From Klebsiella phage KPN8, in the sequence record OP079919.1: 64,000 nucleotides of DNA; one strand, given 5' to 3'. Positions within the stretch are counted from its first letter, which is position 1. Each line of letters begins with the position of its first letter. Below, piece by piece: positions 1,836 through 22,080 of this stretch. The translations under genes and the position numbers were made by a program. The notes under the pieces are model-generated. The model made no database searches and had not been told where the DNA came from. It was given only the letters and a program-made list of their open reading frames with translations.

Positions 1836-1872
1836 AGAGGGGTTAACGCCCCTCTCTTATTTTGTCTTTTTT
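1836..1872 (+). terminator. intrinsic terminator
   Basis: AGAGGGG-ttaacg-CCCCTCT stem followed by TATTTTGTCTTTTTT. Confidence 0.7.
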
Positions 1873-1888
1873 AGGAATTAACATCATG
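1869..1888 (+). promoter_or_regulatory. conserved 20-nt start-site element TTTTAGGA(A/G)TTAACATCATG (copy 1)
   Basis: Near-identical 20-mers end in the start codon at 1888, 4117, 15938, 18436 and 22080. Confidence 0.6.
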
Positions 1889-2182
1889 AGCTTAGAATCT
1901 TTCTTTCGTCAATTACTAGATTGGCCGGAATACGAAACACCATCGTACTTTATTAAAAACGGGGTATGCACGATTATAGACGGCGAAGACCAAATCAGTT
2001 TTCGCATAAGAGATATCGCCCGAATACGTTTGGTTAACCGTACTGTTAACCTCTACAGCCGCACGGGAATAGAGATCGCGTTCTACGGAAAGAAACCTCG
2101 CATCCACGTAGAGAGCTCTTCTGACTTTAAAGAATATTTCGTTAAAATGATGTCCGATATCTTCGCTGGAAGGGAATGCTGA
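1886..2182 (+). CDS. hypothetical protein
   Basis: ATG at 1886 preceded by the conserved TTTTAGGAATTAACATC element. The tracked ORF start at 1862 is TTG inside the terminator tail. Confidence 0.55.
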   Translation: MSLESFFRQLLDWPEYETPSYFIKNGVCTIIDGEDQISFRIRDIARIRLVNRTVNLYSRTGIEIAFYGKKPRIHVESSSDFKEYFVKMMSDIFAGREC

Positions 2183-2745
2183 TGAAAAGTATCAAACGTA
2201 AGTACGTAACAGCTAACGAACTTAAGAATAGTAAGTTCATTATCTTCGGGGAAATGCATACATCAGAAGATCGCGATGAAGTCGAATTTTTGATTCGACG
2301 GGCTCACACGCTAAAGCCGTTTAAAGTCCTCTTTAGTGAGGAATGCGGAAGTGAAGTGTTCCTCACACCTAATGCCATTAAACGAGGACTGGAATTAGAG
2401 AAATGGTCAATTAGCGATCGTTCCTTTAAATTAGCGTTAGAGCTCGGGTTACAAGTCGTAGGGTGCGATCTTTGGGATAAATCCGTTTACGCCTGGGATA
2501 AGAAAGACGAGAACGGAATCTACACAGATTGTCGACGTAGCTTCGCATTAAGAGAGCAGTTTATGATCGATCAGATCATGGGGCTGTGCAACCCTAACAA
2601 TCCACATGTGCGTGGCTGTATGATCGTAGGAGACAGTCACCTAAGGATGACAAAAAATCCCGTTATGGGAGATGCTAGTGCGCTCGGTAAGCTTGTTTAT
2701 AATCGGGGTTTAATTCTTCGCAGTGACATTGGGGAAGTGACATGA
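2176..2745 (+). CDS. hypothetical protein, possible GExH (Tiki/TraB/ChaN-like) fold
   Basis: 189-aa ORF overlapping its neighbours by 4-7 nt. IIFGEMHT motif resembles the GExH signature; weak. Confidence 0.5.
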   Translation: MLMKSIKRKYVTANELKNSKFIIFGEMHTSEDRDEVEFLIRRAHTLKPFKVLFSEECGSEVFLTPNAIKRGLELEKWSISDRSFKLALELGLQVVGCDLWDKSVYAWDKKDENGIYTDCRRSFALREQFMIDQIMGLCNPNNPHVRGCMIVGDSHLRMTKNPVMGDASALGKLVYNRGLILRSDIGEVT

Positions 2746-3170
2746 GAATATTCTTAATTCAGGAAAATTTTTGTAGTCGTGAGTTCTTTTCTCTTTTAAA
2801 GGATTACGGAGTTCCTAAGGGGAATCTGGATACGAATAAGGATGGATATATCTACGTTCGTACCGGGATAGAACCAAAAGAAATTATCCGGCGTATTAAG
2901 CTGGCTGATAGTCGCAAAATGAAAGTCGTTTTCATTATTCCGCATTATCTCAACCAGAGTAAAGAGCTGTACGCAGCTCTCAAGGACGATGGTCACAATT
3001 GGGAGAATCACCTAAGCATAGTCGGAAATCATTTGGAAGAAGCCGATTATGTTGATTTTGTCAGAGACGACAACCTCACAGATATTGTAAAGATCATTCA
3101 GCGTGTTAAAACTGAGTGGGGTCGGGTCACCCATCCCGCTTATTCGTCTATTTTTGGTTCAGTTAACTGA
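2742..3170 (+). CDS. hypothetical protein
   Basis: 142-aa ORF, ATGA overlap with the upstream gene. Confidence 0.5.
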   Translation: MRIFLIQENFCSREFFSLLKDYGVPKGNLDTNKDGYIYVRTGIEPKEIIRRIKLADSRKMKVVFIIPHYLNQSKELYAALKDDGHNWENHLSIVGNHLEEADYVDFVRDDNLTDIVKIIQRVKTEWGRVTHPAYSSIFGSVN

Positions 3171-3230
3171 AAACCCAATACTCGCCACCTTTATGTTTAA
3201 AGGTGGAGTGAGTAGAATAATTGGTCGGAG

Positions 3231-3659
3231 ATGATCATGAGACTATCCCAGTATAAAGATCTATTACAAAGTGTTTCGGCTGAGCCGATTCGGTTTAACT
3301 CTGAGTTCTACGAAAAAGTTATCCCTTTCCCTATTACAGGGAAAGACTCTACTAAGGCGCATTGGAGTTTGGTATTAAATCGCCCAGTTTCGGTAGAAGC
3401 GGCTTTCCTCAAATACGCGACTGGGGTCTTCGTTGATTTCGGGGAATACTTTACGATAAAGGAGCCGTTATCCTTAGCGGACTTCGTATTCCAATATAGC
3501 CGTAACGGCGGGTTTCAGTTAACGGAGTATTTCACTCACTTTATTCCCGCCCCCGATATCACCAGCCCATACGGCTGGGCTACGGTATCACGTAACCCCT
3601 TAAATATTAAAGCGCACTACGATCTGTTCGTGGGGAACCCCAAGTTCATTAAAAAATAA
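3231..3659 (+). CDS. hypothetical protein
   Basis: 142-aa ORF after a GGAG-containing spacer. Confidence 0.5.
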   Translation: MIMRLSQYKDLLQSVSAEPIRFNSEFYEKVIPFPITGKDSTKAHWSLVLNRPVSVEAAFLKYATGVFVDFGEYFTIKEPLSLADFVFQYSRNGGFQLTEYFTHFIPAPDITSPYGWATVSRNPLNIKAHYDLFVGNPKFIKK

Positions 3660-3682
3660 TCACATATTTAATTGGAGGGATT

Positions 3683-4090
3683 ATGGCTAGATTTAAAAGA
3701 CGCGGCGGTTACCGTTCCGATCATGGGCCGGAAGCCGAGTCCCTGAAGATAGAATTAATTCTCAATACGGGGTTGATTAACGAGCTTACAGAAGCGATAA
3801 AAGAGAGAAAATATTCAAGATTGCAACTCCAAATAGCTTACCACAATTACCGTCGGAGTCATTTAAATAAAACACAGCCATTGACCGAATTGGAAAAGAA
3901 CGCCCACATCGCAAAAATAGATCGGGTGAACCGGATCCTCGCGGGGCTTTGCCTGCAGCATAAAGCCGCCGTCGCCAGACAAATCACACTCAAAAATAAA
4001 TACCGAGAGGCATACACTGAGTATTATCGGGCTAACGGAATCAACGCACATTTAATAATAGGGAGTTGGGGTTACATCCCGGCCTCCTAA
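3683..4090 (+). CDS. hypothetical basic protein
   Basis: 135-aa ORF, GGAGGG 6 nt upstream of ATG; Arg/Lys-rich. Confidence 0.55.
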   Translation: MARFKRRGGYRSDHGPEAESLKIELILNTGLINELTEAIKERKYSRLQLQIAYHNYRRSHLNKTQPLTELEKNAHIAKIDRVNRILAGLCLQHKAAVARQITLKNKYREAYTEYYRANGINAHLIIGSWGYIPAS

Positions 4091-4097
4091 GAAAACC

Positions 4098-4117
4098 TTT
4101 TAGGAACTAACATCATG
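4098..4117 (+). promoter_or_regulatory. conserved start-site element (copy 2)
   Basis: TTTTAGGAACTAACATCATG. Confidence 0.6.
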
Positions 4118-4912
4118 ACAGACCAATGTGAGTGGAAAGACGTTTATGTGACTGGCTGCAATCATGTAAACGATAAGATCATGTTAAAATATCGCCCTCA
4201 GTTTCGTACGATGGAAGAACATGATAACGAAACCTGGGGCCTTCTCGACCAAGTGCCAGAAGATAAAATCGTTATCTTCTTAGGTGACAACTTCCTCAGT
4301 CCAGAAAGTCTAATAAGACTAAAACAGTATAAGTTTTACAAAGTCCACGTACTCGGTAACCACGATCTCCAAAACGGGGTGAATATAAAAATGATTACCG
4401 ACGTGATGGATGAAGTCCATGGTAGCATTAAAATGGACGGGATATGGTTCTCGCACATCCCGATGCATAAACACGCTTTAGGACATGGTTATATTAACAT
4501 CCACGCTCACATGCACACCGACACGTTATACGACGATCGTTACGTTAACGTAAGTATGGATGCGACCAATTATCGTTTAATCTCTGTCGATGAAATACTG
4601 AACGGCAAGTACGTTCCTTTTTCCTTCCTCCCTAAAGGAAAAACAGAATCCTTAGATTTAACTGTCCCGATAAACGTTACTCGGTTTATTCTCGACGAAG
4701 AGATCTTTGATCAGGAAGGTAACTTAGTCGCAGAAATTAAATCAGTTGACGCCAGCCGCCCAATGAAGATAGACGTGAATATAAAAATGTTGCTCAGTGA
4801 GTTTAAAGCACATTTTAAATCACCTACCCAGTTCAAATTCGTCGCAGGTAGGGGCCAGGTTCACTCTAAAATTGTTTTCAACAAAATATCAACTCAGGAG
4901 TTACCATCGTGA
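4115..4912 (+). CDS. calcineurin-like metallophosphoesterase
   Basis: Motifs VTGCNH..D, FLGDNF, GNHD, HIPMH and NIHAHMH match the metallophosphatase signature. Preceded by the conserved TTTTAGGAACTAACATCATG element. Confidence 0.7.
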   Translation: MTDQCEWKDVYVTGCNHVNDKIMLKYRPQFRTMEEHDNETWGLLDQVPEDKIVIFLGDNFLSPESLIRLKQYKFYKVHVLGNHDLQNGVNIKMITDVMDEVHGSIKMDGIWFSHIPMHKHALGHGYINIHAHMHTDTLYDDRYVNVSMDATNYRLISVDEILNGKYVPFSFLPKGKTESLDLTVPINVTRFILDEEIFDQEGNLVAEIKSVDASRPMKIDVNIKMLLSEFKAHFKSPTQFKFVAGRGQVHSKIVFNKISTQELPS

Positions 4913-5265
4913 AAGAGGAAAGATTACTGCAGCTCATCGCTTCTTCTAAAGTTCTTGAAGTCGTCACAATCACCCATAAAGAACTCCTGGAAATTGCAGA
5001 GTGTCGGATTCAGGTAAAAACCTTTTATCCCGACATTGTTGATCGTTACCTCGGTTACCTCAAAAACTCTCCTGAACTGGGTACGGGTAAAACAAAAACG
5101 TCGCATCTCATCTGGATGCTGGAGAGTATAAGGGATAATTCTGAAATGTCCCTTACCAAGAAACATCGCTGGTTGGGGTATATTCAGGGCATCATGGTCA
5201 CTCACGGCATTCTTGATGTAGATGAGGAACGTGATAATACTAGAGAAATTTTCAGGGGATTATGA
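4909..5265 (+). CDS. hypothetical protein
   Basis: 118-aa ORF, GTGA overlap with the upstream gene. Confidence 0.5.
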   Translation: MKEERLLQLIASSKVLEVVTITHKELLEIAECRIQVKTFYPDIVDRYLGYLKNSPELGTGKTKTSHLIWMLESIRDNSEMSLTKKHRWLGYIQGIMVTHGILDVDEERDNTREIFRGL

Positions 5266-5636
5266 TGGACGAAAATAACGTAATAGGTCAGACTTACGAA
5301 AGTATTATGTCAGATCGTTTCAAGATGTACGAGTTTAGAACCAAATTGGGTTATGCTCGGTATAACGACCTTTCAGCTAAAATATTTTTTACTATTAAGA
5401 AGATAAGGGCGTTAAAAAAAGAAATCAAAAAATGTCAACGATTAGGCGCCGAGTTGGGTATTTCGGGTAAAACGGTTTATCGGTTAGGGACTCGCAGTTT
5501 TATTGCCGAGCTTAACATGGAACTTGCGTCCCTGCGAATGCTAATCGGTAAAAGAAAAGAAAAAATGGAAGAGTTAAGAAGATTAATTGGCGAGCGCAAC
5601 GACGCTTACAATAAACTTAATAACCTGGAGAAATAA
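5262..5636 (+). CDS. hypothetical coiled-coil protein
   Basis: 124-aa ORF, ATGA overlap with the upstream gene; C-terminal heptad-like region. Confidence 0.5.
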   Translation: MMDENNVIGQTYESIMSDRFKMYEFRTKLGYARYNDLSAKIFFTIKKIRALKKEIKKCQRLGAELGISGKTVYRLGTRSFIAELNMELASLRMLIGKRKEKMEELRRLIGERNDAYNKLNNLEK

Positions 5637-5637
5637 A

Positions 5638-6231
5638 ATGGCAAATATTGAATTAATAAAGCAAACCAACGAAGAAGCTTTCAATGACCCACACCCTGGC
5701 GATCTCTGGCACGAGATGTTTAACGAGCAACTCCGGGTTATTAAGGTTAATGACGACGGGTCCTTATTTATCAGATACTCCCCATCTGGAATAAACCAGA
5801 TCTTGAAGATTAATCGCTCGCAGTTCGCCCTTATGTTAAAGTACAAGCATAATGATAATTTTTGTCTTGACGTGATAAGGGGCAAGAGTGTTTTCGATCT
5901 CCCAAGAAAGATCAGTAACGGTTTATTCGTTAAATTTGAAGACAGCGGTTTAAGCTGCCGGGTGGTGGAAGTCTTTAAAGACGTTTACGTTGTTGCAGAC
6001 GCTAGCGCGCTGACTAACCTTTGCCTGGAAGTTGGGATGAAGAAGCCGTTAGTTCCCGATAATTTGCGTTATCCTTTAATTGTTCATCTTGGCGGGGTAG
6101 GTCAAGCCGATGAGTTACTAAAAGAAACCTCTCTAGCAAAAATTAATCGCATCTTTGACTCGGTCAATTACAATAACTCGGTCAAAACGATTTACAGCTA
6201 TAATCACTGGTTGCTGTTCCGTAATTTTTAA
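5638..6231 (+). CDS. hypothetical protein
   Basis: Internal ATG at 5638 (MANIELIK) sits directly after the upstream stop with a GGAG upstream. The longer ORF from 5587 overlaps the previous gene in another frame. Confidence 0.5.
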   Translation: MANIELIKQTNEEAFNDPHPGDLWHEMFNEQLRVIKVNDDGSLFIRYSPSGINQILKINRSQFALMLKYKHNDNFCLDVIRGKSVFDLPRKISNGLFVKFEDSGLSCRVVEVFKDVYVVADASALTNLCLEVGMKKPLVPDNLRYPLIVHLGGVGQADELLKETSLAKINRIFDSVNYNNSVKTIYSYNHWLLFRNF

Positions 6232-6240
6232 GGATTCGAT

Positions 6241-6678
6241 ATGAGTTTACGTGCTTTGTATTGCGGTGGTGTTGTTAAAAATGGAATAGTGGCTTGGGGG
6301 AACCATATCCCAGTTACTCATCGAGAAACTTTCCTTCAATTTAAATTTCAACTCAAAGGATGTAAATCGGCTGGGTTCTTAGGGGACGAAGAAGGGTATT
6401 TGAAAATTTATGGTAAGAGTATTAGTCTCGGTATCGAGGCTAATGATTTTACTAATAAACGAATCAGGGCGGGTCAAGACAACTACCGGTTCTTCCGTTG
6501 CATGGTGACCGTAGGTAACTACGAATTCCCGTTATTATTTTGCGGAACTTACGAACCTGAGTTCTTTGAGTTACGTAAGGAAATCACCAGAGACGAGCTT
6601 GGCGATGCGTTAAGTCAGCTCGAACAACTGGGTTGCAATTATGTCAGCAACGATCGCAGAACCGTTAACTGGCTTTAG
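6241..6678 (+). CDS. hypothetical protein
   Basis: 145-aa ORF, AAGGA 7 nt upstream. Confidence 0.5.
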   Translation: MSLRALYCGGVVKNGIVAWGNHIPVTHRETFLQFKFQLKGCKSAGFLGDEEGYLKIYGKSISLGIEANDFTNKRIRAGQDNYRFFRCMVTVGNYEFPLLFCGTYEPEFFELRKEITRDELGDALSQLEQLGCNYVSNDRRTVNWL

Positions 6679-6687
6679 GAAAATGAA

Positions 6688-7911
6688 ATGTTCGAATATC
6701 TCATTCAGATAAATCAGGTTCTCTCTTCTGTCCCTATTATCGGTGGGAGTTTAGCGGTAGCCTTAGGCGGCGGGATCATTGCCGCCTTCTGGAAAGGTCC
6801 AGCGTTACTCTCGAGGATTTTTAACTCCACTGTTGTGGTTTCCTTCACTCTTAATAACTCAGGGTGGGGCAATAATACCAAGCACTACATTGCGTTTATT
6901 AAATGGTTTAACCGTTCAGATATTCTTAAGATAACGCGATCTACTGGTTACGAGGCCGTTTACGACAGCTCTGGTAAAGGGCCTAGTGTCGGCAGTCATT
7001 TATTTCGATTTAAGAATAAATGGTACTATCTCAAAATCAAAGAACTCCCTTCTACGGGAAGCGAGCGTGAGAAGAAAGAGATATGTATAAAGACGTTAGG
7101 GTGTTCTGTCAGCATTTTCGACGATCTCTTCGAGGCCTTTAAGGATAAGACGGATGACGACGGAGAACTCAAAGTAAAACGGTTCAGGGACAATTACTGG
7201 TACGACGCCTGTCTTCTCAGCAGAAGGTCGTGGGATACCGTCATCTTAAACAAAGAAAAGAAGGTGGAAATAGTCGAACTCATCGAAGAGTTTTACGCGT
7301 CGAGGGAGTGGTACCGAGAAAGAGGAATACCGTATAAACTCGTTATTGTTTTGTACGGCCCGGCCGGGACGGGTAAGAGTACTGTTATCAAAGCGTTAGC
7401 ACGCTTGTTTAACAAAAACCTTAACCTCATTTATCTTCACCAAATGACGGATAACACCTTCCCGGCCAGCATAGAGACGGTAGAGCAAGATTCTTTTATT
7501 GCCATAGAGGATTTTGATACGGTTTCTTCTATAGGGTCGAGGACCAAACCTAAGGAGGAAAAAGATCCGTTCCAAATAGACCTTTCAGACGGAGGATTAA
7601 ACCTGACCACTGTTTTAAATACATTGGATGGGATCGCCGAATTGAATGGTCAGGTCATCTTTATGTCAACCAACCATCTTGAAAAGATCGACAGTGCGCT
7701 GATCAGAACGGGTAGGGTGGATGCAAAAATCCACATCGGGTTTTTAGGTAAAGAAGAGGTCGGAGACTTTATTCAAATGATGTATCCCGGAACAGAAACT
7801 GATTTGGATTTTGTTACAGAAATCTCTGGGTCGGATCTTCAGTCGTATGCGTTAGCCAACAAAAGAAATTCGGAAGGTTTCTTAAAAGAGCTTAAGGACC
7901 ATTTTAAATAA
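6688..7911 (+). CDS. BCS1-like AAA+ ATPase with N-terminal transmembrane helix
   Basis: N-terminal hydrophobic helix PIIGGSLAVALGGGIIAAFW. Walker A is VLYGPAGTGKST, Walker B is FIAIEDFD. Segment LNTLDGIAELNGQVIFMSTNHLEKIDSALIRTGRVDAKIHIG closely parallels the Bcs1 signature LNALDG...FMTTN...LDPALIRPGRVD. Confidence 0.8.
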   Translation: MFEYLIQINQVLSSVPIIGGSLAVALGGGIIAAFWKGPALLSRIFNSTVVVSFTLNNSGWGNNTKHYIAFIKWFNRSDILKITRSTGYEAVYDSSGKGPSVGSHLFRFKNKWYYLKIKELPSTGSEREKKEICIKTLGCSVSIFDDLFEAFKDKTDDDGELKVKRFRDNYWYDACLLSRRSWDTVILNKEKKVEIVELIEEFYASREWYRERGIPYKLVIVLYGPAGTGKSTVIKALARLFNKNLNLIYLHQMTDNTFPASIETVEQDSFIAIEDFDTVSSIGSRTKPKEEKDPFQIDLSDGGLNLTTVLNTLDGIAELNGQVIFMSTNHLEKIDSALIRTGRVDAKIHIGFLGKEEVGDFIQMMYPGTETDLDFVTEISGSDLQSYALANKRNSEGFLKELKDHFK

Positions 7912-7935
7912 CCTTTTATTTTAGGACAAACATCG

Positions 7936-8490
7936 ATGATTTTACAAGCAGTTAGCGTCGGTGGTAAGAAAACCACCATAGAAATAGAAGAAGGGCTTGT
8001 TAATGTTTGGCTGTTAGCTAAGCACGACGTCTTCTTACAAAACTTACCTCCTCTGGTTTGTCATGCATTGATTAAAGAGCATATCGAACGCAATATTACC
8101 CGTCGACCTGACATTCCTTTAACAGCCCAAGTACGCGAGCTGATGTACCGCGATATTACCATTAAGCTCAACGGTAAACCAAACTCGGTCATTCCCGTAA
8201 TTAAAGTAAGGCCGAGTAAAACCAGAAACCAGCTGAACCGAATCGTCAAAGAGTACTTCACGGTAAACAGCATGGAGTTCGATAAGAAACTCACTGTTGG
8301 TGAAATGCGTAAATTGGAGAAATACCTCCTTTCCTTTTACAAAGAACCCGTGCAGATTCACAAGAAAGAATTCCCTAATGGGGTTTATAAACTCATCGGC
8401 GTGGAATACGAAAATGAGCGGTTTGAAATAACCTTCTCTGACGATTTCTTCTTCGCTTTATATAAGGGCCCAGAATACCATGTTCAATAA
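7936..8490 (+). CDS. hypothetical protein
   Basis: 184-aa ORF preceded by a TTTTAGGACAAACATCG element. Confidence 0.55.
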   Translation: MILQAVSVGGKKTTIEIEEGLVNVWLLAKHDVFLQNLPPLVCHALIKEHIERNITRRPDIPLTAQVRELMYRDITIKLNGKPNSVIPVIKVRPSKTRNQLNRIVKEYFTVNSMEFDKKLTVGEMRKLEKYLLSFYKEPVQIHKKEFPNGVYKLIGVEYENERFEITFSDDFFFALYKGPEYHVQ

Positions 8491-8899
8491 TGTCATTTTA
8501 TTTGTCTATGACGATAGTGAGCTCGCTACCCAGTACACCGTGGCTAATAAAGGTGGAACAAGAAGATTAACAACCCCAGGTCACAGTGTTCTCTTATCTG
8601 ACGTCAAAGATAGAGTGGGGAAAAGCAGTTTCCATAACAGCATTGTGGTATTTGTACGAGGAGGGGCTTTCTTTGTTTTCATGTGCGGGTCCGTTCTATA
8701 CGGATTGGTGGGTGATCTCGATCACCTTCTGGATCACTTGTTGAAGATCAGGGACGAACTCAATACTCGGGCAGACATACGCAATCGGACAATACTGCAT
8801 ATCTCCGAGGCAGGATTCGGGCGGTACGACATCATTCCGACCATCGATCCCGTCGCGCACAAGGCATTGGCTGATTACCAAAATAATAAATTATTCTAA
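8480..8899 (+). CDS. hypothetical protein
   Basis: 139-aa ORF overlapping the upstream gene by 11 nt; followed by a strong terminator. Confidence 0.5.
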   Translation: MFNNVILFVYDDSELATQYTVANKGGTRRLTTPGHSVLLSDVKDRVGKSSFHNSIVVFVRGGAFFVFMCGSVLYGLVGDLDHLLDHLLKIRDELNTRADIRNRTILHISEAGFGRYDIIPTIDPVAHKALADYQNNKLF

Positions 8900-8902
8900 C
8901 AG

Positions 8903-8948
8903 TTACTGGAGTGGGGATGACCCCACTCCAGTAAGTTATTTTTTTTTT
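8903..8948 (+). terminator. intrinsic terminator
   Basis: 14-bp stem TTACTGGAGTGGGG/CCCCACTCCAGTAA with loop ATGA and a 10-T run. Confidence 0.8.
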
Positions 8949-8963
8949 CATATTATTTTAAAA

Positions 8964-8973
8964 CTATATTACC
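8964..8973 (+). promoter_or_regulatory. CTATATTACC box in AT-rich gap (candidate phage early promoter)
   Basis: aaaaCTATATTACCtaaacgtatagACAAC sits 43 nt upstream of the 9016 ATG, just after a terminator. Confidence 0.5.
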
Positions 8974-9015
8974 TAAACGTATAGACAACTTCTTTTATTT
9001 AACTGGAGTAGTAAA

Positions 9016-11705: not shown

Positions 11706-11732
11706 CTCGAGTATCAATTTAGGAAAAATATC

Positions 11733-12182
11733 ATGCAATTAGATAACATTTGGTTTTTCGGTATAGACGCAGAAGATCTAGAAAATTTTAAAGCGATCTT
11801 TACCGTAGAAGGGTTAAAGGAACCCTTTGATTTTAATTTCATTCCCTTCACCATTTCGCCTCAGTCGATGGTCGCTCACACTAAAGAACTGACGATCACG
11901 CTTTACCCCGTTAAAGAGAAAATTTTATTAAATGGTAAAGTAGAACAAACGATCTTTAAAGGTTCCGACGGAAGGTTGTATTTTAACCTGGGTTCGATTA
12001 TCCAGGTGATGAATAGCCAAATAGCCGCCTTTGTAGCCAAATCCTTTTCTGGGTTTAATAAACTAGGCTGGTTTATTAAAGAGATCGACGGAAGTTTTAT
12101 CCTATTCAACGTCCAGAGCTTCAGTGACGAGGGGTTGATTAAACTGTATCGATCCTCTAGCGTAACCGATAGCTCCAATTAA
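11733..12182 (+). CDS. hypothetical protein
   Basis: 149-aa ORF preceded by TTTAGGAAAAATATCATG. Confidence 0.5.
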   Translation: MQLDNIWFFGIDAEDLENFKAIFTVEGLKEPFDFNFIPFTISPQSMVAHTKELTITLYPVKEKILLNGKVEQTIFKGSDGRLYFNLGSIIQVMNSQIAAFVAKSFSGFNKLGWFIKEIDGSFILFNVQSFSDEGLIKLYRSSSVTDSSN

Positions 12183-12191
12183 GGAAACTTT

Positions 12192-13131: not shown

Positions 13132-13134
13132 AAC

Positions 13135-13572: not shown

Positions 13573-13584
13573 TTAGGAAAACAA

Positions 13585-14448: not shown

Positions 14449-14460
14449 CTTGCAATAAAA

Positions 14461-14887: not shown

Positions 14888-14962
14888 TTCGCTATTCTCT
14901 GAATTAGTTAGTAATAAACGATCATAGCATTTTAGACTTTCGACACATAGAAGTTTTCAGTT

Positions 14963-14972
14963 CTATATTACC
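14963..14972 (+). promoter_or_regulatory. CTATATTACC box (candidate early promoter)
   Basis: cagttCTATATTACCgttatgtaaacACAAC sits 38 nt upstream of the 15010 ATG. Confidence 0.5.
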
Positions 14973-15009
14973 GTTATGTAAACACAACCTATCATTTAGG
15001 AAAGCCATC

Positions 15010-15492
15010 ATGGAACTCGTTAATCAAAAAGTTTATATTGTTAAGCCAGGCGATACTCTGTCAGAGATAGCAAACCATTTTTGTGGGAATCCTGCTATCG
15101 GATACGATATAGCTGAGGACAACGGCATTATCAACGCCGGACTCATCTATCAAGGGCAAAGAATCTGGATAAGGGAGGGATTCCTAAAGGAAGAATTTAA
15201 GGGCGCTCCTAATACCCAACCCAAAGAAGAACCTTTCAGAGAAGGGCAGCATGTTCAAATCACCCCATCTGGTAAATTAACAAGACTGGATCTTCATGAC
15301 TTGTGTTGGAATACCGAACCATTAGCTAAGGGTTTCTTCGTGATTGTCGAAATACATCCAAATCAGACAGAGCTTTTAGTGCAAGATAATAAGAACCGCC
15401 ATTATTACTTCAATCTAAATGAATTGAAGGAACTTATTCGGGTTCGTGGGGCGATAGAAATTTCCCCTAATCGTTTTATGCCGTTTAGCTAA
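15010..15492 (+). CDS. LysM-domain protein
   Basis: N-terminal YIVKPGDTLSEIANHF...GLIYQGQRIWI fits the LysM consensus; TTTAGGAAAGCCATCATG start context. Confidence 0.6.
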   Translation: MELVNQKVYIVKPGDTLSEIANHFCGNPAIGYDIAEDNGIINAGLIYQGQRIWIREGFLKEEFKGAPNTQPKEEPFREGQHVQITPSGKLTRLDLHDLCWNTEPLAKGFFVIVEIHPNQTELLVQDNKNRHYYFNLNELKELIRVRGAIEISPNRFMPFS

Positions 15493-15507
15493 ATCCCCGA
15501 GGTTCGC

Positions 15508-15924
15508 ATGAAAAAGATTGTCTTATATTTATTCCCTCGATCTTCGCTCATCCCACCCATGAGTGTTCCACCTACTCGCAAGGCAGACCTCCTAAAAGAG
15601 TTGGAGGATGTTGACGGGTGGATCTCGGATATACAAGAGATCACGGAACTCGGTATTGAAGTTCGACAACACGAATTCCTGATTACCGATGACGGGTTTA
15701 ACGTTATCGCCAAAGAGTGGGAAGTTCACTTTAATGATCCCGACATTTATTGCATGCTCGAAGTATACGGGCTTCCAAAAAATATACGGGATAAAATTAT
15801 TGTCGGACTGAAAGGAATTAAGGAATTATTTACGTCGAGGGTTTGTTCGTTCCTCTCGGTGATTCCTGAAGAAACGATGGTTTTAATCGAAGCTCAACCC
15901 GTCGAAGAAGACGAACAACTTTAG
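15508..15924 (+). CDS. hypothetical acidic protein
   Basis: 138-aa ORF, GAGG upstream. Confidence 0.5.
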   Translation: MKKIVLYLFPRSSLIPPMSVPPTRKADLLKELEDVDGWISDIQEITELGIEVRQHEFLITDDGFNVIAKEWEVHFNDPDIYCMLEVYGLPKNIRDKIIVGLKGIKELFTSRVCSFLSVIPEETMVLIEAQPVEEDEQL

Positions 15925-15938
15925 GATTTAACATCATG
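15919..15938 (+). promoter_or_regulatory. conserved start-site element (copy 3)
   Basis: CTTTAGGATTTAACATCATG. Confidence 0.6.
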
Positions 15939-16313
15939 TATGAGGTTACTGTTTACCATTGCTCCAGACAAGAACTGGAAAAGAAAGATCAGGATTTCTT
16001 CGAAGACCTGACCAAGAACGAAGGTTGGGTAGAAGACATCGAAGATATTGAAATGGCGCTGGGTTCCAGGGAGGATTGCATTGAAGGTCAAGAATTCAGA
16101 TTACCCGTCTCTGCTTTAGATATCCTGGAAATGAAATGGGAGGGGCGTTTTGACTCTGGCATTTGCATGTGTTCCGCCATTTACTATTTCTCGCCTGAAT
16201 GCATTGAATCCGTATGTCGTGATCTTTCCGATCATGGTACTCGGGAGGCCGCTCTCTTAGCAGAGTACCTGCGGGACATCCCCGATACCGAAATTGTCGT
16301 TATCGAAATCTAA
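15936..16313 (+). CDS. hypothetical acidic protein
   Basis: Preceded by the conserved CTTTAGGATTTAACATCATG element; followed by a GC-rich hairpin and T-run. Confidence 0.55.
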   Translation: MYEVTVYHCSRQELEKKDQDFFEDLTKNEGWVEDIEDIEMALGSREDCIEGQEFRLPVSALDILEMKWEGRFDSGICMCSAIYYFSPECIESVCRDLSDHGTREAALLAEYLRDIPDTEIVVIEI

Positions 16314-16337
16314 TTGCTGTGTAGTTGTGGTAGTTCT

Positions 16338-16366
16338 TTTGGGGGCCTTCGGGCCCTCCTTTTTTA
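16338..16366 (+). terminator. intrinsic terminator
   Basis: GGGGGCC-ttcg-GGCCC(TCC) hairpin followed by TTTTTT. Confidence 0.6.
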
Positions 16367-16377
16367 AGGAAAGTAAA

Positions 16378-16818
16378 ATGCGGGAAGACAGAAATATTTA
16401 TCGTAACACAGCTTATATCAACGATCGATATGAGAGGATGGGTGATGCAATAGAAGTAACACTATTTTCTTTTTCGACGTTTGAAATGGATCAGGAAATT
16501 GTGTTTGAATGGGTTAAGAAAAATCCCGCCATCAAACTCGAACTTTATCGAGGTCTGAGTGATAAAGATTCTCCAGTAAATATCTGCGGGTCCGTTACTA
16601 ATATAAGGATCAACCCCCTAGATTTCAAAGTCACCGGTACGCTTCGACCAGAAGGAAGAATGCGCAAAATACTGGAAGATACCATCAATCGGCATCAGCC
16701 CGTCACCATTAACATGCGAGGGATATTTGATTTTAGACATTCCGTTTATCGTTGTACCGAAATCAAAGGCCTGGTGCTAATGTCTGACTTTAGTGCCTTT
16801 CGTAAAAGGAGTATTTAA
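16378..16818 (+). CDS. hypothetical protein
   Basis: ATG at 16378 has AAGGAAAG upstream. The tracked start at 16294 lies inside the upstream terminator hairpin, so the later start is preferred. Confidence 0.5.
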   Translation: MREDRNIYRNTAYINDRYERMGDAIEVTLFSFSTFEMDQEIVFEWVKKNPAIKLELYRGLSDKDSPVNICGSVTNIRINPLDFKVTGTLRPEGRMRKILEDTINRHQPVTINMRGIFDFRHSVYRCTEIKGLVLMSDFSAFRKRSI

Positions 16819-16837
16819 CTTCCATAATTTTTTAAAT

Positions 16838-16847
16838 CGATATTACC
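16838..16847 (+). promoter_or_regulatory. cGATATTACC box variant
   Basis: aaatCGATATTACCacagtgtctcaaACATAAAAC sits upstream of the HTH gene. Confidence 0.4.
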
Positions 16848-16907
16848 ACAGTGTCTCAAACATAAAACTTTTAGGTCTTCATCAACATCACCAAGGAGTA
16901 CGCCCGT

Positions 16908-17282
16908 ATGCGTTATCAACATTTTTCTATCGTCTCTTCCAAAGAAGCATTTTCCATTCGTCTTTCTTACATCCTGCAACATCTGAACAAAACAGAAACT
17001 CAGCGCTCCATCGCGGAGTATTGTGGGGTGAGTACGAGCACCATCTCCGCCATCTGCAACGAGCACGTCCAGTACGTATCCCTCAATACGCTGATGAAAA
17101 TCGCGGATAAACTGAAACTTAACTACGAGGTTGTCTTTAAAGGCAATCGCGGTAAAGTGAGTAACTTTGTTACTGTTGAATCCGCCGTGGATTACATGAA
17201 GCTCGGCAAGTTGAACCCCGTTCGTAAAAATGTGATGAAGGGTAACTCCCCTGCATTTAAAGGACGGGTGGCGACGCATTAA
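16908..17282 (+). CDS. XRE-like helix-turn-helix DNA-binding protein
   Basis: TQRSIAEYCGVSTSTISAICN fits an HTH motif; AAGGAG 7 nt upstream; terminator downstream. Confidence 0.55.
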   Translation: MRYQHFSIVSSKEAFSIRLSYILQHLNKTETQRSIAEYCGVSTSTISAICNEHVQYVSLNTLMKIADKLKLNYEVVFKGNRGKVSNFVTVESAVDYMKLGKLNPVRKNVMKGNSPAFKGRVATH

Positions 17283-17288
17283 TCATGG

Positions 17289-17334
17289 TGGGAGTCCGCA
17301 AGGGCTCCCACGCTATTTATTAATTTATTTTTTA
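17289..17334 (+). terminator. intrinsic terminator
   Basis: TGGGAG...CTCCCA stem followed by a T-rich tract. Confidence 0.6.
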
Positions 17335-17343
17335 GGATAAAAC

Positions 17344-17901
17344 ATGACCATTATCGTAGGGGTTGTAAAAGAAAAATCGTTAAGTGCGGACCGTTATATA
17401 CTGGATTACAAGCAGATCAACAAAACAGTATCTTCGGTTTCACGCTACACCGAGAGTAAATTAAAAATATCTCCGGACAATCATTTCTGTTATGTCTTCT
17501 GTGGCGAACAAAAAGAAGAGATCGTTCCATTGGTTCTTAACTATTTACTCAGATTCGAAAAAGGTCTGGTGAAGGAAGACGAATTTATTCATTGCGGACT
17601 TAAATCCTGCGACTCCCTCATTGTGATGTCCGCGAGACATTTTTACTCAATTCAGTTAAATGAAAAACAGGGTGTTTTAGAAGTTCAAATTCGTTTAGAT
17701 GGCGCAGTCACCTATCCTTTTTTAAACAACCATATGGTCGCCGGTCTCGATCTCCCAGGGGAAGTAATTCGTCAAGCACTGATGGAAGCCAATCTCATTC
17801 TCCACACCGATGAAAATGAAGTTGACGTGGTCCATCAAAAAGACCTCACTCTTATTAAGAAAGCCACCAAAAAGGAAATTAAAAATGCTCTTTTATCTTA
17901 A
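17344..17901 (+). CDS. hypothetical protein
   Basis: TTTTTTAGGATAAAACATG start context; 185-aa ORF. Confidence 0.5.
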   Translation: MTIIVGVVKEKSLSADRYILDYKQINKTVSSVSRYTESKLKISPDNHFCYVFCGEQKEEIVPLVLNYLLRFEKGLVKEDEFIHCGLKSCDSLIVMSARHFYSIQLNEKQGVLEVQIRLDGAVTYPFLNNHMVAGLDLPGEVIRQALMEANLILHTDENEVDVVHQKDLTLIKKATKKEIKNALLS

Positions 17902-18343
17902 CAAGCGGGTTATCGTTGACAGCGTAGCAAACATCTTTATGTTAGCGGACGATACTCCTCACGTCGAGTTCTTATTGGATGGTGACAAACGATGGGCTTT
18001 CATTCCCTATCATGAAAATAACGGCAATACGTTATCCGCAGCCATCTCGGTGAATGAACACGGTGTTTGTTATAATGCGTATTTCAACTATAAAACGTTA
18101 AGTCTCGATCGTCGTATTCCGTTACCCTCTAATTTGTTAAAAGCCTTTCAAACAGGGGGAGACTCCGACTACTGTAACAACATGCACGTCGCTAAGGCCG
18201 CTTTCTATTACCATAACTGCACCTTTGACGAATTCCAAGCGCTGCTAAACAAATCAGGTCGGGGGTACAAAATGTTTGATTTATTAACAGTCTCTAAAAG
18301 ACTTAAGGCGATGCAACCGGAACAATTTAACTGGGTTATTTAA
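17885..18343 (+). CDS. hypothetical protein
   Basis: ATG at 17885 overlaps the upstream stop by 17 nt. The longer tracked ORF from 17810 overlaps the previous gene in another frame. Confidence 0.45.
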   Translation: MLFYLNKRVIVDSVANIFMLADDTPHVEFLLDGDKRWAFIPYHENNGNTLSAAISVNEHGVCYNAYFNYKTLSLDRRIPLPSNLLKAFQTGGDSDYCNNMHVAKAAFYYHNCTFDEFQALLNKSGRGYKMFDLLTVSKRLKAMQPEQFNWVI

Positions 18344-18380
18344 AACCAAGATTCCTATTATACGTTAAAGAATTTTGGAT

Positions 18381-18390
18381 CTATATCACC
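18381..18390 (+). promoter_or_regulatory. CTATATCACC box variant upstream of the chaperonin
   Basis: ggatCTATATCACCgtcttgatgcactAACCAT sits 44 nt upstream of the GTG at 18434. Confidence 0.4.
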
Positions 18391-18413
18391 GTCTTGATGC
18401 ACTAACCATAATC

Positions 18414-18436
18414 TTTTTAGGAGTATTAACATCGTG
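18414..18436 (+). promoter_or_regulatory. conserved start-site element (copy 4, GTG start of chaperonin)
   Basis: TTTTTAGGAGTATTAACATCGTG. Confidence 0.6.
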
Positions 18437-20011
18437 AACGTTCGTGGCGTAAAAGTAAAAGCAGAAACCCGTCAAATTATTGATAACACCGTAGAGCTCG
18501 TTGCAACCGCGGTAACCTCGACCATGGGCCCTAACGGCAAGCTGGTTGTTATTGACGAAACGGGTAATCCTAAAATGACCAAGGATGGGGTGACTGTAGC
18601 GCGCTCTATCCGTTTGGATGATCGGGCAATGGACATCATCGCCAAGATGATCACCGAAGCCTCGATCAAAACGGATGCCGAATGTGGCGATGGGACCACC
18701 ACCACCGTATTCTTAACAAGAGCGTTTTATAACGCCTTTAAAGATAAACTGGATTTCATGACCAAACGCCGGGTGGAAGAGTTAACGAAAGAAACGATCG
18801 AAATGCTCAAAGGAATGACGAAGGTTATTTCTCTTGATAGCCCAGTCCTTCACAATCTGGCGTTAACAACCAGTAATAACGATCTGGATATCGTGAATAA
18901 GCTCTACGATATCTTTAAGACCATACCCGATCCCATGATTGATTATCGTCGGGGTGTAACAGGTATTGACGAGATCGAATACAGTAAGGGCAAGGAATTC
19001 ACAGGCGGGTACGCGCACCCTACTTTCACTAAAGATGGAAGTGGAAGCCCGATTACGATCGAATCGGGTTATGCGTGCATCTTTGAAGGGAAGTTCAGTA
19101 TTCCAGATGACGAGTCGGAATTCCTGAGGCTCTTCGATGAGATCACTAAAAGGGGATATCGTCAGACTATCGTTATCGCACGTGAATTCGACGAACACAC
19201 CCTGATGGTGATGAACAAAATGAATCACGTTATGCTGAAGCAGAAACTGGCGGAGGAACCCGTTTTCATTCCTGTGCGGGTTCAGGCTATCGGAACAGCG
19301 GGAGTGGGGATCATTGGAGATATTGCAACCGTACTGGGGTTAAGTCCTGATGTGGACTATTTAGGTTGGAAGTCTCGTGACTATGAGGTACACTGTATTG
19401 AAAACATTACGGTAAAGGGCGCGGCATTCTTCGTGGGTAGTGTATCTGATGAAGTCTCGGAACGCACAGTAAAGCGCATCGGGCAAATTAAAGATCAAAT
19501 CGATAACTTGCCAGCTGCTCAGAAACACACGCCTTTGGCGAAGATCCTGAGACACCGTATCTCTACTCTGATGGGTAACCGAGTGACTGTAACCGTTGGA
19601 GGAGAAACCGCTTCCGACATCAAAGAACGACTGGATCGATTTGAAGACGTCGGTCGGGCTATCGCATCAGCGTTAACTAACGGCGTCCTTCCGGGCATTG
19701 GTTATTCATTGGCTTATGTTGGTAGTGAGCTGGTGAAGAAATATCCTGACGATTCTATAGTGAAACTGTACGCCGATGTATTGGGCGAGCAGCTTCACAT
19801 GTTGATGGGTCGGGAATTCAATGATCCTGAATTAGTCTATGTCAATCTGGCTACTGGGGAAACCGGTAAGCATCCTCAAGACATCAACGTCTGGGATGCG
19901 CAGTTAGCCACAGTCACTGCGTTAAGGGCTGGTGTCAGCACTGCTATCTCTTTGGCGAGCACCGATACGTTAATTATCGGTAGTCGTGCAGGTGGTGCGG
20001 ATATTCCCTGA
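18434..20011 (+). CDS. GroEL-like group I chaperonin (Hsp60 family)
   Basis: 525-aa product. TMGPNGKLVVIDETGNPKMTKDGVTVARSIRLDD and AECGDGTTTTVFLTRAF parallel GroEL [29 protein letters not shown] and AGDGTTTATVLAQA. GTG start preceded by TTTTTAGGAGTATTAACATC. Confidence 0.85.
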   Translation: MNVRGVKVKAETRQIIDNTVELVATAVTSTMGPNGKLVVIDETGNPKMTKDGVTVARSIRLDDRAMDIIAKMITEASIKTDAECGDGTTTTVFLTRAFYNAFKDKLDFMTKRRVEELTKETIEMLKGMTKVISLDSPVLHNLALTTSNNDLDIVNKLYDIFKTIPDPMIDYRRGVTGIDEIEYSKGKEFTGGYAHPTFTKDGSGSPITIESGYACIFEGKFSIPDDESEFLRLFDEITKRGYRQTIVIAREFDEHTLMVMNKMNHVMLKQKLAEEPVFIPVRVQAIGTAGVGIIGDIATVLGLSPDVDYLGWKSRDYEVHCIENITVKGAAFFVGSVSDEVSERTVKRIGQIKDQIDNLPAAQKHTPLAKILRHRISTLMGNRVTVTVGGETASDIKERLDRFEDVGRAIASALTNGVLPGIGYSLAYVGSELVKKYPDDSIVKLYADVLGEQLHMLMGREFNDPELVYVNLATGETGKHPQDINVWDAQLATVTALRAGVSTAISLASTDTLIIGSRAGGADIP

Positions 20012-20053
20012 TGCGTTTTAGGGGAAGGAAACTTCCCCATTGGGAGAATTTTT

Positions 20054-20311
20054 ATGGACGTTAACACTTCGTCAATTAAAAATTCTAATAATAGACAACA
20101 TAATAATTACAGCGATTCATCCTCCGCTCCGATTCAGTTGGATCGTTCGGGGGAAATTGTCGACGCCAGAACTAAGCTAACAGTTACTGGTGAAATTCCT
20201 CTTCGAAAGTTACCCACTTTCTCAAACCCACCGCAAAGAACAATAAGAGACGATAAAAAACCTTCATCACTCTGGGGGATGGTTAGAGCTCTGTTCTTTG
20301 TATTCATGTGA
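20054..20311 (+). CDS. hypothetical small protein with hydrophobic C-terminus
   Basis: 85-aa ORF; Asn/Ser-rich N-terminus, C-terminal WGMVRALFFVFM; followed by a strong terminator. Confidence 0.4.
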   Translation: MDVNTSSIKNSNNRQHNNYSDSSSAPIQLDRSGEIVDARTKLTVTGEIPLRKLPTFSNPPQRTIRDDKKPSSLWGMVRALFFVFM

Positions 20312-20314
20312 TAC

Positions 20315-20366
20315 TATTCCTCTACCCACGTGGGTAGAGGAATAATAACGCTTTTTTATTTTTTAA
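20315..20366 (+). terminator. intrinsic terminator (CTCCTAC-family variant)
   Basis: 14-bp stem TATTCCTCTACCCA/TGGGTAGAGGAATA followed by CTTTTTTATTTTTT. Confidence 0.8.
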
Positions 20367-20443
20367 GGTTATCTCACTCATGGCTAAAATCTATTTCTAT
20401 TACTCCTCTATTGTATAGTAGAAACTCTTATGGGGAAATAGAA

Positions 20444-21412
20444 ATGTCGAAAATTAGTGGTTACAAAGAACATCCGGTAATAAAAAACCTTTTCATCCAT
20501 CCTACGGAAGATAATCACGTCCTGTATGTTAGGAAGAAAAAAGTATCTCGGATAAAGACCCATGTCGGTAAACGCGGATACGTTATTTTTACCATGTGGT
20601 TAAATGGGAAATCCAAGGGTTTTCGCTTCCACAAATTGAAAGCCGAAACGTATCTCAAGAAACCCAGTTCAGACCGCACCCTAGTCGTAAATCATAAGGA
20701 CCATGTTAAGATCAATAACGATCTCGATAACCTAGAATGGGGGACTCAGAAAGAGAATGTCGATCATTCATTAAATATCCGTCAAAAGCTTTGTCCTCTC
20801 TATCGGATAATGGATTTAACTACGGGGAGATGGTGTACAGCCGGTAGTCGTAAAGGGGTAATCGAAATGCTAGCTTGTACCCAACGACAACTCTCTAACC
20901 ATATTAAAGACCCTCGCTATCCATTGCTATTCAAGTGGGAAGTAACAAGGGGTTTTACTTGGAATCTTTCAAAAGATGACGTGGGTAAATATAACCCACG
21001 AGAGCTTCTTCCTTATGTGGTAGAAAAGAATGGCGTCGTTTTTTACCTGGCGACATTAGCTGAAGTTGGTGAATTGACAAAGATCACTAAATACAATATT
21101 ACAGTTGCTTTGAAAAATCAACCAATTCTGCATGCCAAGGGATTCAGCATTCGGTTTATTAATTCTTATGAAGAGTGGATGAAGACTGTTATTGGGAAGT
21201 CCTATATCGATACCATGTTAAATAAAAGTAATAGAAATAAAAAACGGATCGAGGTAATAAACACTCTTACGGAGGAGAAAACCACGTTAAACGGAATTAT
21301 GGAATTAATGGAACTGACTAATTATTCACGACCTACCATCGACAGGGCAATGAAAAATATGTGTGAAGATGGGTGGGTGACTTTCAAAAATCTAAAGATA
21401 AGGTTTATTTAA
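20444..21412 (+). CDS. HNH homing endonuclease (free-standing)
   Basis: VVNHKDHVKINNDLDNLEWGTQKENVDHS matches the phage HNH_3 signature. ATG at 20444 (MSKISGYKEHP) preferred over the GTG at 20330 inside the terminator. Confidence 0.75.
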   Translation: MSKISGYKEHPVIKNLFIHPTEDNHVLYVRKKKVSRIKTHVGKRGYVIFTMWLNGKSKGFRFHKLKAETYLKKPSSDRTLVVNHKDHVKINNDLDNLEWGTQKENVDHSLNIRQKLCPLYRIMDLTTGRWCTAGSRKGVIEMLACTQRQLSNHIKDPRYPLLFKWEVTRGFTWNLSKDDVGKYNPRELLPYVVEKNGVVFYLATLAEVGELTKITKYNITVALKNQPILHAKGFSIRFINSYEEWMKTVIGKSYIDTMLNKSNRNKKRIEVINTLTEEKTTLNGIMELMELTNYSRPTIDRAMKNMCEDGWVTFKNLKIRFI

Positions 21413-21999
21413 TGGCTAAGGTATTTTTCAATTACGCTGCGATGAATTCGGGAAAGACTACTGGTTTGCTGCAATCAGCCTATAATTACGTTGAAAGAGG
21501 AATGTCAGTCTTACTTCTTAAACCTAAACTCGATAATAGAGAAGGAACCGATCCACTAATTAAATCAAGAATAGGATTAGAAAGCGAGTGCGTTTTTATT
21601 CCTGATGATGGGGATGAATTAGTCGACCTCATTCATAATAACAAAGGTGTTTCGGCGATATTCATCGACGAGGTTCAGTTCGTTCCAGTGCGGGTGCTTA
21701 GTGCCATCATGGTGATGTGTGACACCATGGATATTCCTCTTCTTTGCTACGGTCTCCGTAACGCTTATGACGGTAAGGGATTCCCGGGATCTGATTTCTT
21801 ATTACGTCACGCTGATAAACTGGTCGAATGCAAATCCATTTGTTGGTGCGGTAAAAAGGCCACTCACAACATGATGGTTGTCGATGGGAAAGTGGTAAGG
21901 GAAACCACATCAGGGGGAAATATGGTTGTCGGCGGTAATGAACTGTATCACGCCGTATGTCGTCAGCATTTCTTCGAAGGTAAATACAAAGACGATTAA
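21412..21999 (+). CDS. tdk: thymidine kinase
   Basis: MAKVFFNYAAMNSGKTTGLLQSAYNYVERGM...IDEVQF...LLCYGLR...DKLVECKSICWCGKKA...VVGGNELYHAVCRQH is near-collinear with bacterial and T4 Tdk, including the P-loop and Zn-ribbon cysteines. TAATG overlap with the HNH stop. Confidence 0.93.
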   Translation: MAKVFFNYAAMNSGKTTGLLQSAYNYVERGMSVLLLKPKLDNREGTDPLIKSRIGLESECVFIPDDGDELVDLIHNNKGVSAIFIDEVQFVPVRVLSAIMVMCDTMDIPLLCYGLRNAYDGKGFPGSDFLLRHADKLVECKSICWCGKKATHNMMVVDGKVVRETTSGGNMVVGGNELYHAVCRQHFFEGKYKDD

Positions 22000-22018
22000 C
22001 TTATATTTATTTTGAGGT

Positions 22019-22034
22019 CTACATTATCATGGTG
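22019..22034 (+). promoter_or_regulatory. CTACATTATCA(A/T)GGT element (copy 1)
   Basis: gaggtCTACATTATCATGGTGt sits 44 nt upstream of the ATG at 22078. Confidence 0.4.
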
Positions 22035-22060
22035 TAAGCATAGTACGTTTTTATTTTCCT

Positions 22061-22080
22061 TTTTAGGAGTTAACATCATG
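22061..22080 (+). promoter_or_regulatory. conserved start-site element (copy 5)
   Basis: TTTTAGGAGTTAACATCATG. Confidence 0.6.

Follow-up and report, generated by a model that had tools for sequence, protein, structure and literature searches.

A 20-nucleotide leader fused to the start codons of unrelated genes in Klebsiella phage KPN8: a probable ribosome-binding module reused in gene exchange

A 64,000-nucleotide stretch of the genome of Klebsiella phage KPN8 (sequence record OP079919.1; the whole stretch is referred to here as the window) contains a recurring 20-mer that ends in the initiation codon. Five unrelated genes have its consensus, TTTTAGGA-R-TYAACATC, directly against their start codons. 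The phage is a Miami-like jumbo phage related to phiKZ, and six deposited jumbo phages of ~252 kb match the window at 92–97% identity. Among the deposited relatives are the Klebsiella phages phiKp_32 (97% identical to the window, genome of 251 kb), Miami (genus Miamivirus) and YC1, the ‘Stenotrophomonas’ phage BUCTxx100, and the Raoultella phage VB_ZK_P1 (also named ZKP1). The annotation of Miami points to phiKZ-related kin, namely RisingSun, PCH45, EL, OBP and the Vibrio phages pTD1 and VP4B. Beyond the Miami-like group, the nearest GroEL relatives show ~40% amino acid identity, and scans of IMG/VR and of metagenome contigs for intermediate relatives gave chance-level single matches or another ~96%-identical genome. 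The literature on Miami (its genome announcement and papers mentioning it) describes no such motif and no transcriptome, and no description of the 20-mer was found in the literature searched.

A scan for TTTTAGGARTTAACATC allowing up to 2 mismatches gave four matches in the window (1869, 4098, 15919 and 22061), all on the + strand and each running into an ATG, compared with 0.03 expected in shuffled sequence. A preliminary description of this DNA had listed five genes with a near-invariant 20-mer ending in the initiation codon. Four of these are strict copies with ATG; the fifth, in front of the GroEL-like gene at 18434, has GTG and a 2-nt insertion, which splits AGGAG from TTAACATC and leaves the TTAACATC half beside the start codon. 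Nine looser sites had also been given. Six of them (7936, 11733, 15010, 17344, 23198 and 38592) have TTTAGGA 6–9 nt before the ATG, and three are only approximate: 13585 (ATTAGGA), 37526 (CTTAGGG) and 60173 (TTTAGGG). The copy in front of the gene at 6688 had been overlooked. The heptamer TTTAGGA occurs 18 times on the + strand of the window, and 12–13 of these occurrences precede gene starts. Coordinates of the copies and of other features are collected in Table 1.

The products of the element-bearing genes are a GroEL-like protein, a phosphoesterase, a LysM protein and many proteins of unassigned function. Pairwise BLASTP among 23 element-bearing proteins gave no match below E = 0.01, in agreement with the earlier statement that the genes are unrelated. 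Gene duplication as the origin of the common leader was rejected, because the proteins are mutually unrelated.

Table 1. Copies of the 20-mer and other features of the window (positions are those of the window).
Feature	Coordinates	Strand	Sequence and remarks
Terminator-like hairpin	1836..1855	+	U-tail merges into the T-tract of copy 1
Strict copy 1	1869..1888	+	TTTTAGGAATTAACATC+ATG; starts a 98-aa gene of unassigned function (ATG 1886)
Five-gene cassette, 2.2 kb	1892..4097	+	between copies 1 and 2
Strict copy 2	4098..4117	+	TTTTAGGAACTAACATC+ATG; starts the phosphoesterase gene (PHROG phosphoesterase)
Looser copy	6674..6690	+	TTTAGGAAAATGAA+ATG; contains the TAG stop of gene 6241..6678
Looser copy	7919..7938	+	TTTTAGGACAAACATCG+ATG; AACATC shifted by 1 nt
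Looser copy	11718..11735	+	TTTAGGAAAAATATC+ATG
Predicted early (virion RNA polymerase) promoter core	14964..14971	+	TATATTAC; 46 nt before ATG 15010
Looser copy	14995..15012	+	TTTAGGAAAGCCATC+ATG; LysM protein; 3' of early promoter 14964–14971
Strict copy 3	15919..15938	+	CTTTAGGATTTAACATC+ATG; first base C
Looser copy	17330..17346	+	TTTTAGGATAAAAC+ATG; follows hairpin 17288–17311
Predicted early promoter core	18382..18389	+	TATATCAC; 52 nt before GTG 18434
Copy 4	18415..18436	+	TTTTAGGAG-TA-TTAACATC+GTG, 2-nt insertion; GroEL-like chaperonin (Cpn60 / PHROG groEL)
Predicted early promoter core	22020..22027	+	TACATTAT; 58 nt before ATG 22078
Strict copy 5	22061..22080	+	TTTTAGGAGTTAACATC+ATG; starts a 164-aa gene of unassigned function
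Looser copy	23181..23200	+	ATTTAGGACATAACACC+ATG; 3 mismatches
Looser copy	38577..38594	+	TTTTAGGATATCGTC+ATG; follows hairpin ~38535–38556
Other predicted early promoters	8965–8972, 37469–37476, 50302–50309		consensus match to phiKZ/EL
UvsX-like recombinase gene	33231..34685		
RNA polymerase beta-like subunit genes	48781..50394 and 50391..54647		

The recurrence of the 20-mer is real and non-random. Genes were called in both the window and the assembled genome of phiKp_32, and for 140 of 157 genes the start was the one deposited. As a null, each upstream column of the start regions (80 in the window, 271 in phiKp_32) was permuted among genes, which keeps the Shine–Dalgarno (SD) sequence, the T-richness and AT-richness and the A at −3, and distances were scored against the 17-mer. 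Five window genes lay within 3 mismatches, compared with 0.04 expected (maximum of 2 in 2000 column permutations). In the phiKp_32 genome, ten genes lay within 3 mismatches (0.09 expected) and 18 within 5 mismatches (2.6 expected). TTTAGGA at −16 to −10 co-occurred with an AACATC-like spacer (Fisher p = 2.5e-8, phiKp_32), and a consensus-free comparison of the −20 to −1 regions gave 37 pairs with no more than 5 mismatches out of 20, compared with 3.5 expected. The earlier claim that the motif goes beyond an SD sequence on an AT-rich background is borne out by these counts.

The 20-mer is anchored to start codons. All 14 coding-strand matches in phiKp_32 (up to 3 mismatches) are at a start codon, 12 of them abutting it exactly, and the preliminary description had rightly called the element fused to start codons. 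The reverse strand has a single match, with 3 mismatches and without AGGA, inside a coding region. No antisense copies, which could have indicated a regulator RNA, were found in the non-coding DNA of phiKp_32 at up to 3 mismatches. Start-region clustering is concentrated in the 150–200 kb early-gene region of phiKp_32 and absent from 1–100 kb and 200–250 kb, and none was found in 50 kb of Vibrio phage VP4B, the closest outgroup. The general start-region profile is T-rich at −22 to −14, with the SD sequence at −12 to −8 and A at −3 in 57% of cases, and ATC is the commonest −3 to −1 triplet (31 observed, 18 expected). The 20-mer is lineage-specific, and it is an extreme, sharp peak of the genome's own graded start-region consensus. 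Away from starts, TAACATC as a DNA motif in its own right is only weakly enriched genome-wide; the intergenic region 59529–59658 (130 nt, in front of the gene at 59659) contains it twice, away from start codons.

At the mRNA level, the 20-mer would act as a translation initiation region (TIR) made up of a U-tract, the SD core AGGA, the A/U-rich spacer UUAACAUC and AUG. It lies on the coding strand, directly 5' of the start codons of real genes, and its AGGA purine core is complementary to the 3' end of 16S rRNA, which in E. coli ends ...CACCUCCUUA. AGGA is located at −13 to −10, leaving 9 nt to the AUG in the four ungapped strict copies and 11 nt in the copy at 18434. SD cores typically lie 5–10 nt from the start codon. 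U-rich leaders upstream of an SD sequence bind ribosomal protein S1, and the U-tract is positioned where S1 would bind. In some copies the U-tract is the U-tail of a preceding hairpin. This arrangement suggests that the element would support strong translation and that S1 would participate in it.

The 20-mer is open in the frame of its gene and has UAG and UAA stops in the other two frames, so that an upstream cistron can end inside it, 9–14 nt before the restart. Such a stop is seen at 6688 and at 15936, where the TAG of TTTAGGA (15922–15924) doubles as the stop codon of the upstream gene 15508..15924. An upstream cistron ending in this way would hand the ribosome to the next gene. The element serves ~5–6% of the phage genes, mostly in early small-gene arrays, and is found in a short 5' untranslated region (UTR) behind an early promoter, between cistrons, or after a hairpin. 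The copies at 1869 and 22061 have ~32 nt in common.

Terminator-like hairpins are ~two-fold enriched in the window at 1500–21000. A conserved hairpin family, ACTCCTACC-TTAG-GGTAGGAGT (and CTCCTGCC..GGCAGGAG), is present at ~38535–38556 and ~60113–60133 of the window, with many more members in phiKp_32. The 7-mers of this family are 30–40× enriched in intergenic DNA, and the hairpins look like terminators with a common stem sequence.

A second intergenic-enriched motif family, (tttaAAcc)TAYATYAY, is separate from the 20-mer. Its forms TATATTAC and CCTACATTATC agree with early promoters that have been predicted, in published work, for phiKZ (TATATTAC) and EL (WTTTYAAACCTACATTATY). Published early promoters of the virion RNA polymerase (RNAP) of jumbo phages have a conserved AT-rich core of ~10 nt (TATATTAC or CCTACATTATY) upstream of early operons, with the motif centred near −10 of the transcription start site (TSS). 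The 20-mer does not contain the TAYATYAY core; the cores are separate and upstream, at a variable distance of 41–58 nt from the start codon genome-wide. The 20-mer is inside the 5' UTR or between cistrons, in a fixed register with the ATG and in a variable register with the promoter.

At 37469 the predicted promoter sequence is TTTTTAAACCTACATTATC and agrees with the EL consensus at every position. The promoter predicted at 50302 falls in the 3'-terminal part of one RNAP beta-like gene (48781..50394) and precedes the other by 89 nt. Outside the window, phiKp_32 has two IS200/IS605-type TnpB genes (119897–121033 and 147036–148172), each with an early-promoter core (TATATCAT / TACATTAT) 27 nt upstream and a near-identical leader. 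Matches to sigma-70-type promoters are not enriched at 1500–21000 of the window (34 found, 38 expected), which fits a phage that transcribes its genes with polymerases of its own. Two other readings, an integron-like core site and TAACAT as a host sigma-70 −10 box, were considered and dropped, with sigma-70-like sites not enriched.

Comparison with the relatives revealed gains and losses of genes whose ends coincide exactly with start codons. Two copies of the element flank the five genes at 1892–4097 in the window, Miami, YC1 and BUCTxx100; VB_ZK_P1 and phiKp_32 lack this cassette and have a single copy at the site. Homology of the window to both phages stops at 1891, just past copy 1, and VB_ZK_P1 matches again from 4098, where copy 2 begins. 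The two high-scoring segment pairs overlap by 23 nt in VB_ZK_P1, and the overlap is the element itself. The single copy in VB_ZK_P1 and phiKp_32 directly precedes the phosphoesterase gene, of which phiKp_32 retains only the first 20 codons. One copy in some genomes and two copies flanking a cassette in others is the pattern expected of recombination between direct repeats. In its 5' part (4115–4632) the phosphoesterase gene is 83.6% identical to that of VB_ZK_P1, compared with ~92% elsewhere, and the 20-codon remnant behind the element in phiKp_32 is of the VB_ZK_P1-type allele.

A survey of indels, in which the window was aligned with three relatives, gave further cases. Window positions 12195–12593 are missing in Miami and phiKp_32, as an exact start-to-start indel (12192/12593), and VB_ZK_P1 has an exact start-to-start insertion at window 23417–23421. 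The phiKp_32 segments 148501–148903 and 162926–163274 are missing in VB_ZK_P1, again exactly start to start, and at phiKp_32 162600 an additional gene is present in VB_ZK_P1. In VB_ZK_P1 an extra gene also lies behind the start region of the 15936 copy (window 15933–15938), and the displaced gene has a different leader. The retained start region is a copy of the element at 15936 and at phiKp_32 148501. Homology of the window to VB_ZK_P1 also begins at 14995, the first base of the LysM-gene copy, and cassettes of ~50 nt comprising promoter, leader and start region are common to unrelated genes (phiKp_32 122830 and 244196). In these alignments the start region stays with the locus while the gene behind it changes. 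Of 56 indel junction ends, 28 fall within −25 to +6 of a start codon, compared with 4–6% of positions.

Taking these results together, we consider it probable that the 20-mer is a strong, modular ribosome-binding leader, and a coupling junction, that is reused for early genes, and that start-to-start exchange of cassettes both maintains and spreads its near-identical sequence. Insertions, deletions and replacements of genes would have start codons as their exact limits, with the TIR staying at the locus. The near-identity of the leader before unrelated genes could then be accounted for, because exchange of the proposed kind leaves the TIR in place. The moving unit would be a gene together with the TIR of the next gene at its 3' end, which would copy the leader to new places. 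Short homologous TIRs would be likely crossover points, and the phage encodes a UvsX-like recombinase. We infer that recombination within the element, rather than selection on gene boundaries alone, has contributed to this pattern.

Several observations weigh against this reading. Only one indel event has the element at both ends, and most start-to-start junctions have just 2–6 nt in common. The survey of junctions covered element-rich regions and counted several junctions in more than one genome comparison. Selection alone would also favour breakpoints in start regions, because the intergenic gaps are barely longer than a start region. Predicted accessibility of −20 to +3 is the same for element and other start regions (0.500 and 0.496, p = 0.79). 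Divergence from VB_ZK_P1 is 5.1% in element start regions versus 7.1% in other start regions, with 17% at third codon positions; stronger purifying selection on the former is not seen, and the relatives are too close to one another. TTTAGGA matches the anti-SD sequence less well than TAAGGA does, and pairing with rRNA therefore does not account for the T before AGGA. Selection for translation alone leaves the recurrence of one particular spacer unexplained, and none of the tests for 16S pairing, RNA accessibility, RegA or conservation explains it. Expression or ribosome-binding data for Miami-like phages are absent from the literature searched.

The preliminary description had attributed the 20-mer to a regulatory site, either a promoter or TSS for the sigma-less phage RNAP, or a translational operator. 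For the first of these, the 20-mer would belong to a middle or late class of promoters of the multisubunit enzyme, with transcripts starting in the T-tract or AGGA. The phage does encode RNAP beta-like subunits, in phages of this kind the middle and late promoters are short with ill-defined sequences, and the non-virion RNAP of phiKZ is influenced by sequence downstream of the TSS. In addition, the copies right after hairpins (1886, 17344 and 38592) would need a new start if the hairpins terminate efficiently. However, the anchoring described above is to the start codon in every coding-strand copy, and the downstream half of the element keeps its position relative to the start codon, not relative to the upstream half. 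Most copies are in arrays with recognisable early promoters at variable distances, and the element is scarce in the large-gene regions holding structural genes (1–100 kb and 200–250 kb). Some copies leave no room for a promoter: that at 15936 overlaps the upstream stop, that at 4115 lies in a 24-nt gap from the upstream stop, and that at 1886 begins 13 nt past the hairpin 1836–1855. The published phiKZ late-promoter core of the non-virion RNAP, T(−3)A(−2)T(−1)G(+1), overlaps the TSS, and the published AR9 core is AACA-N6-T-R. The element contains neither; it reads CATCATG, in which the only ATG is the start codon, and it does not fit a phiKZ-type late promoter, since a transcript begun at the G of ATG would lack an intact start codon. 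With initiation in the T-tract, the leader would be 13–16 nt long and would have nothing upstream of the SD sequence. We therefore consider the promoter reading very unlikely, and the earlier assignment is not supported.

The other half of that claim, a translational operator, would have a phage factor or phage-modified host factor (an RNA-binding regulator, a ribosome-associated protein or a small RNA) controlling an early regulon, in the manner of T4 RegA. The two halves of the element co-occur as a unit well above the independent-column expectation, the specific spacer recurs without explanatory complementarity to rRNA, the copies are concentrated in one early-gene region, and the site overlaps the start codon, like RegA sites. 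One report further describes an early phiKZ protein that binds host ribosomes and modulates expression (PMC11849849). On the other hand, tblastn of T4 RegA against phiKp_32 and the window found no homologue (best E of 0.44–1.7), no candidate binding factor was found, and the phiKp_32 genome lacks an antisense copy elsewhere. The spacing between the halves varies in 3 of ~18 copies (18434, 7936 and 148501), which is unusual for a fixed protein site, and the distance histogram shows the motif grading continuously into the general start-region consensus. The lack of start-region clustering in the outgroup VP4B argues against a conserved system. An operator is unlikely on this balance. A dedicated mRNA signal for a phage-encoded or remodelled translation component, which would give early transcripts privileged or timed access to ribosomes and into whose regulon exchange would plug genes, is quite improbable. 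A further possibility, that the spacer UUAACAUC is an rRNA-complementary enhancer of the T7 gene 10 epsilon kind, pairing outside the anti-SD sequence, is highly doubtful. The pentamer UUAAC also occurs in epsilon (UUAACUUUA), but the best duplex of the spacer with E. coli 16S rRNA was −4.5 kcal/mol compared with a shuffle mean of −6.1 kcal/mol, 88% of shuffled spacers being as good or better, and the longest exact complement was 6 nt. As a positive control, T7 epsilon recovered its known site at 457–467 in the same analysis. That the matches arose by chance from an SD sequence in an AT-rich leader can be given almost no weight. AGGA, A at −3 and upstream T-richness are indeed general to the start regions of this genome, and 50 kb of T4 early genes also showed mild start-region clustering (16 pairs with no more than 6 mismatches out of 20, 3.4 expected), but the permutation and consensus-free counts are far above their expectations.

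Insertions of other kinds were also observed among the relatives. VB_ZK_P1 has a 1.1-kb insertion at window 7376–7381, in the ATPase-like gene 6688..7911, right after the P-loop codons (GPAGTGK). It resembles an intein or an intron/homing-endonuclease insertion, and the window is without it. The RNAP beta-like genes of phiKp_32 have a 380-nt insertion at window 50220/50221 and a ~1.4-kb insertion at 53536/53538, the latter holding an open reading frame of ~350 aa. Both may be introns or homing elements.

The element is ordinary in kind, and the part worth following is the start-to-start turnover of genes with one leader reused as the joint. If the proposed cassette exchange is correct, jumbo-phage gene order would be built of units running from start codon to start codon, and a few near-identical leaders would be both expression signals and joints for gene exchange. 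Miami-like Klebsiella phages are candidates for therapy, and their small early genes turn over rapidly; the exchange would give this turnover a concrete mechanism. Annotators of the Miami-like group would gain a practical guide to gene starts and predicted early promoters, and phage engineers a strong leader ready for use. The unusual RNAPs of these phages would at the same time be freed of a promoter assignment that is tempting but wrong.

Comparison of the 20-mer with known systems shows partial resemblance to each. Like SD regions with a U-rich S1 leader, it has an anti-SD purine core at a workable distance, a 5' U-rich tract and A at −3, on the coding strand. Unlike these, it varies little at 17 positions, spacer included, from one unrelated gene to another, it has U instead of the rRNA-complementary A before AGGA, and it is confined to one phage lineage. 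It occurs in the same intergenic regions before early genes as the phiKZ-like early promoters (TATATTAC; EL WTTTYAAACCTACATTATY), but differs from them in sequence, keeps a fixed register with the ATG and also occurs without a promoter. T7 epsilon pairs with nucleotides 458–466 of 16S rRNA and lies upstream of the SD sequence. The 20-mer has the UUAAC pentamer of epsilon beside the SD sequence, but its spacer is 3' of the SD sequence and lacks above-chance complementarity to 16S rRNA. RegA sites overlap start codons, and the 20-mer resembles T4 RegA operators in form only, as a start-codon-overlapping sequence common to several unrelated early mRNAs. No RegA homologue is found here, and RegA sites are loosely conserved, whereas the 20-mer is nearly invariant.

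The PeSL cassettes of T4-type phages are short repeats between small non-essential genes (Arbiol et al. 2010, PMC2839356; PMC4122927), each a composite of ~50–70 nt with a sigma-70 early promoter and a stem-loop terminator (PMC2839356; PMC4122927). Recombination between PeSL repeats yields excised mini-circles. The 20-mer is unlike them in being a 20-nt ribosome-binding leader that ends in the start codon, with no promoter or stem-loop of its own; a promoter core or a hairpin (1836–1855, 17288–17311) is an occasional, separate neighbour. In both systems, indel and replacement endpoints between near-identical phages fall in the repeats, here with copies at both ends in one case, and the repeat stays while the genes change.

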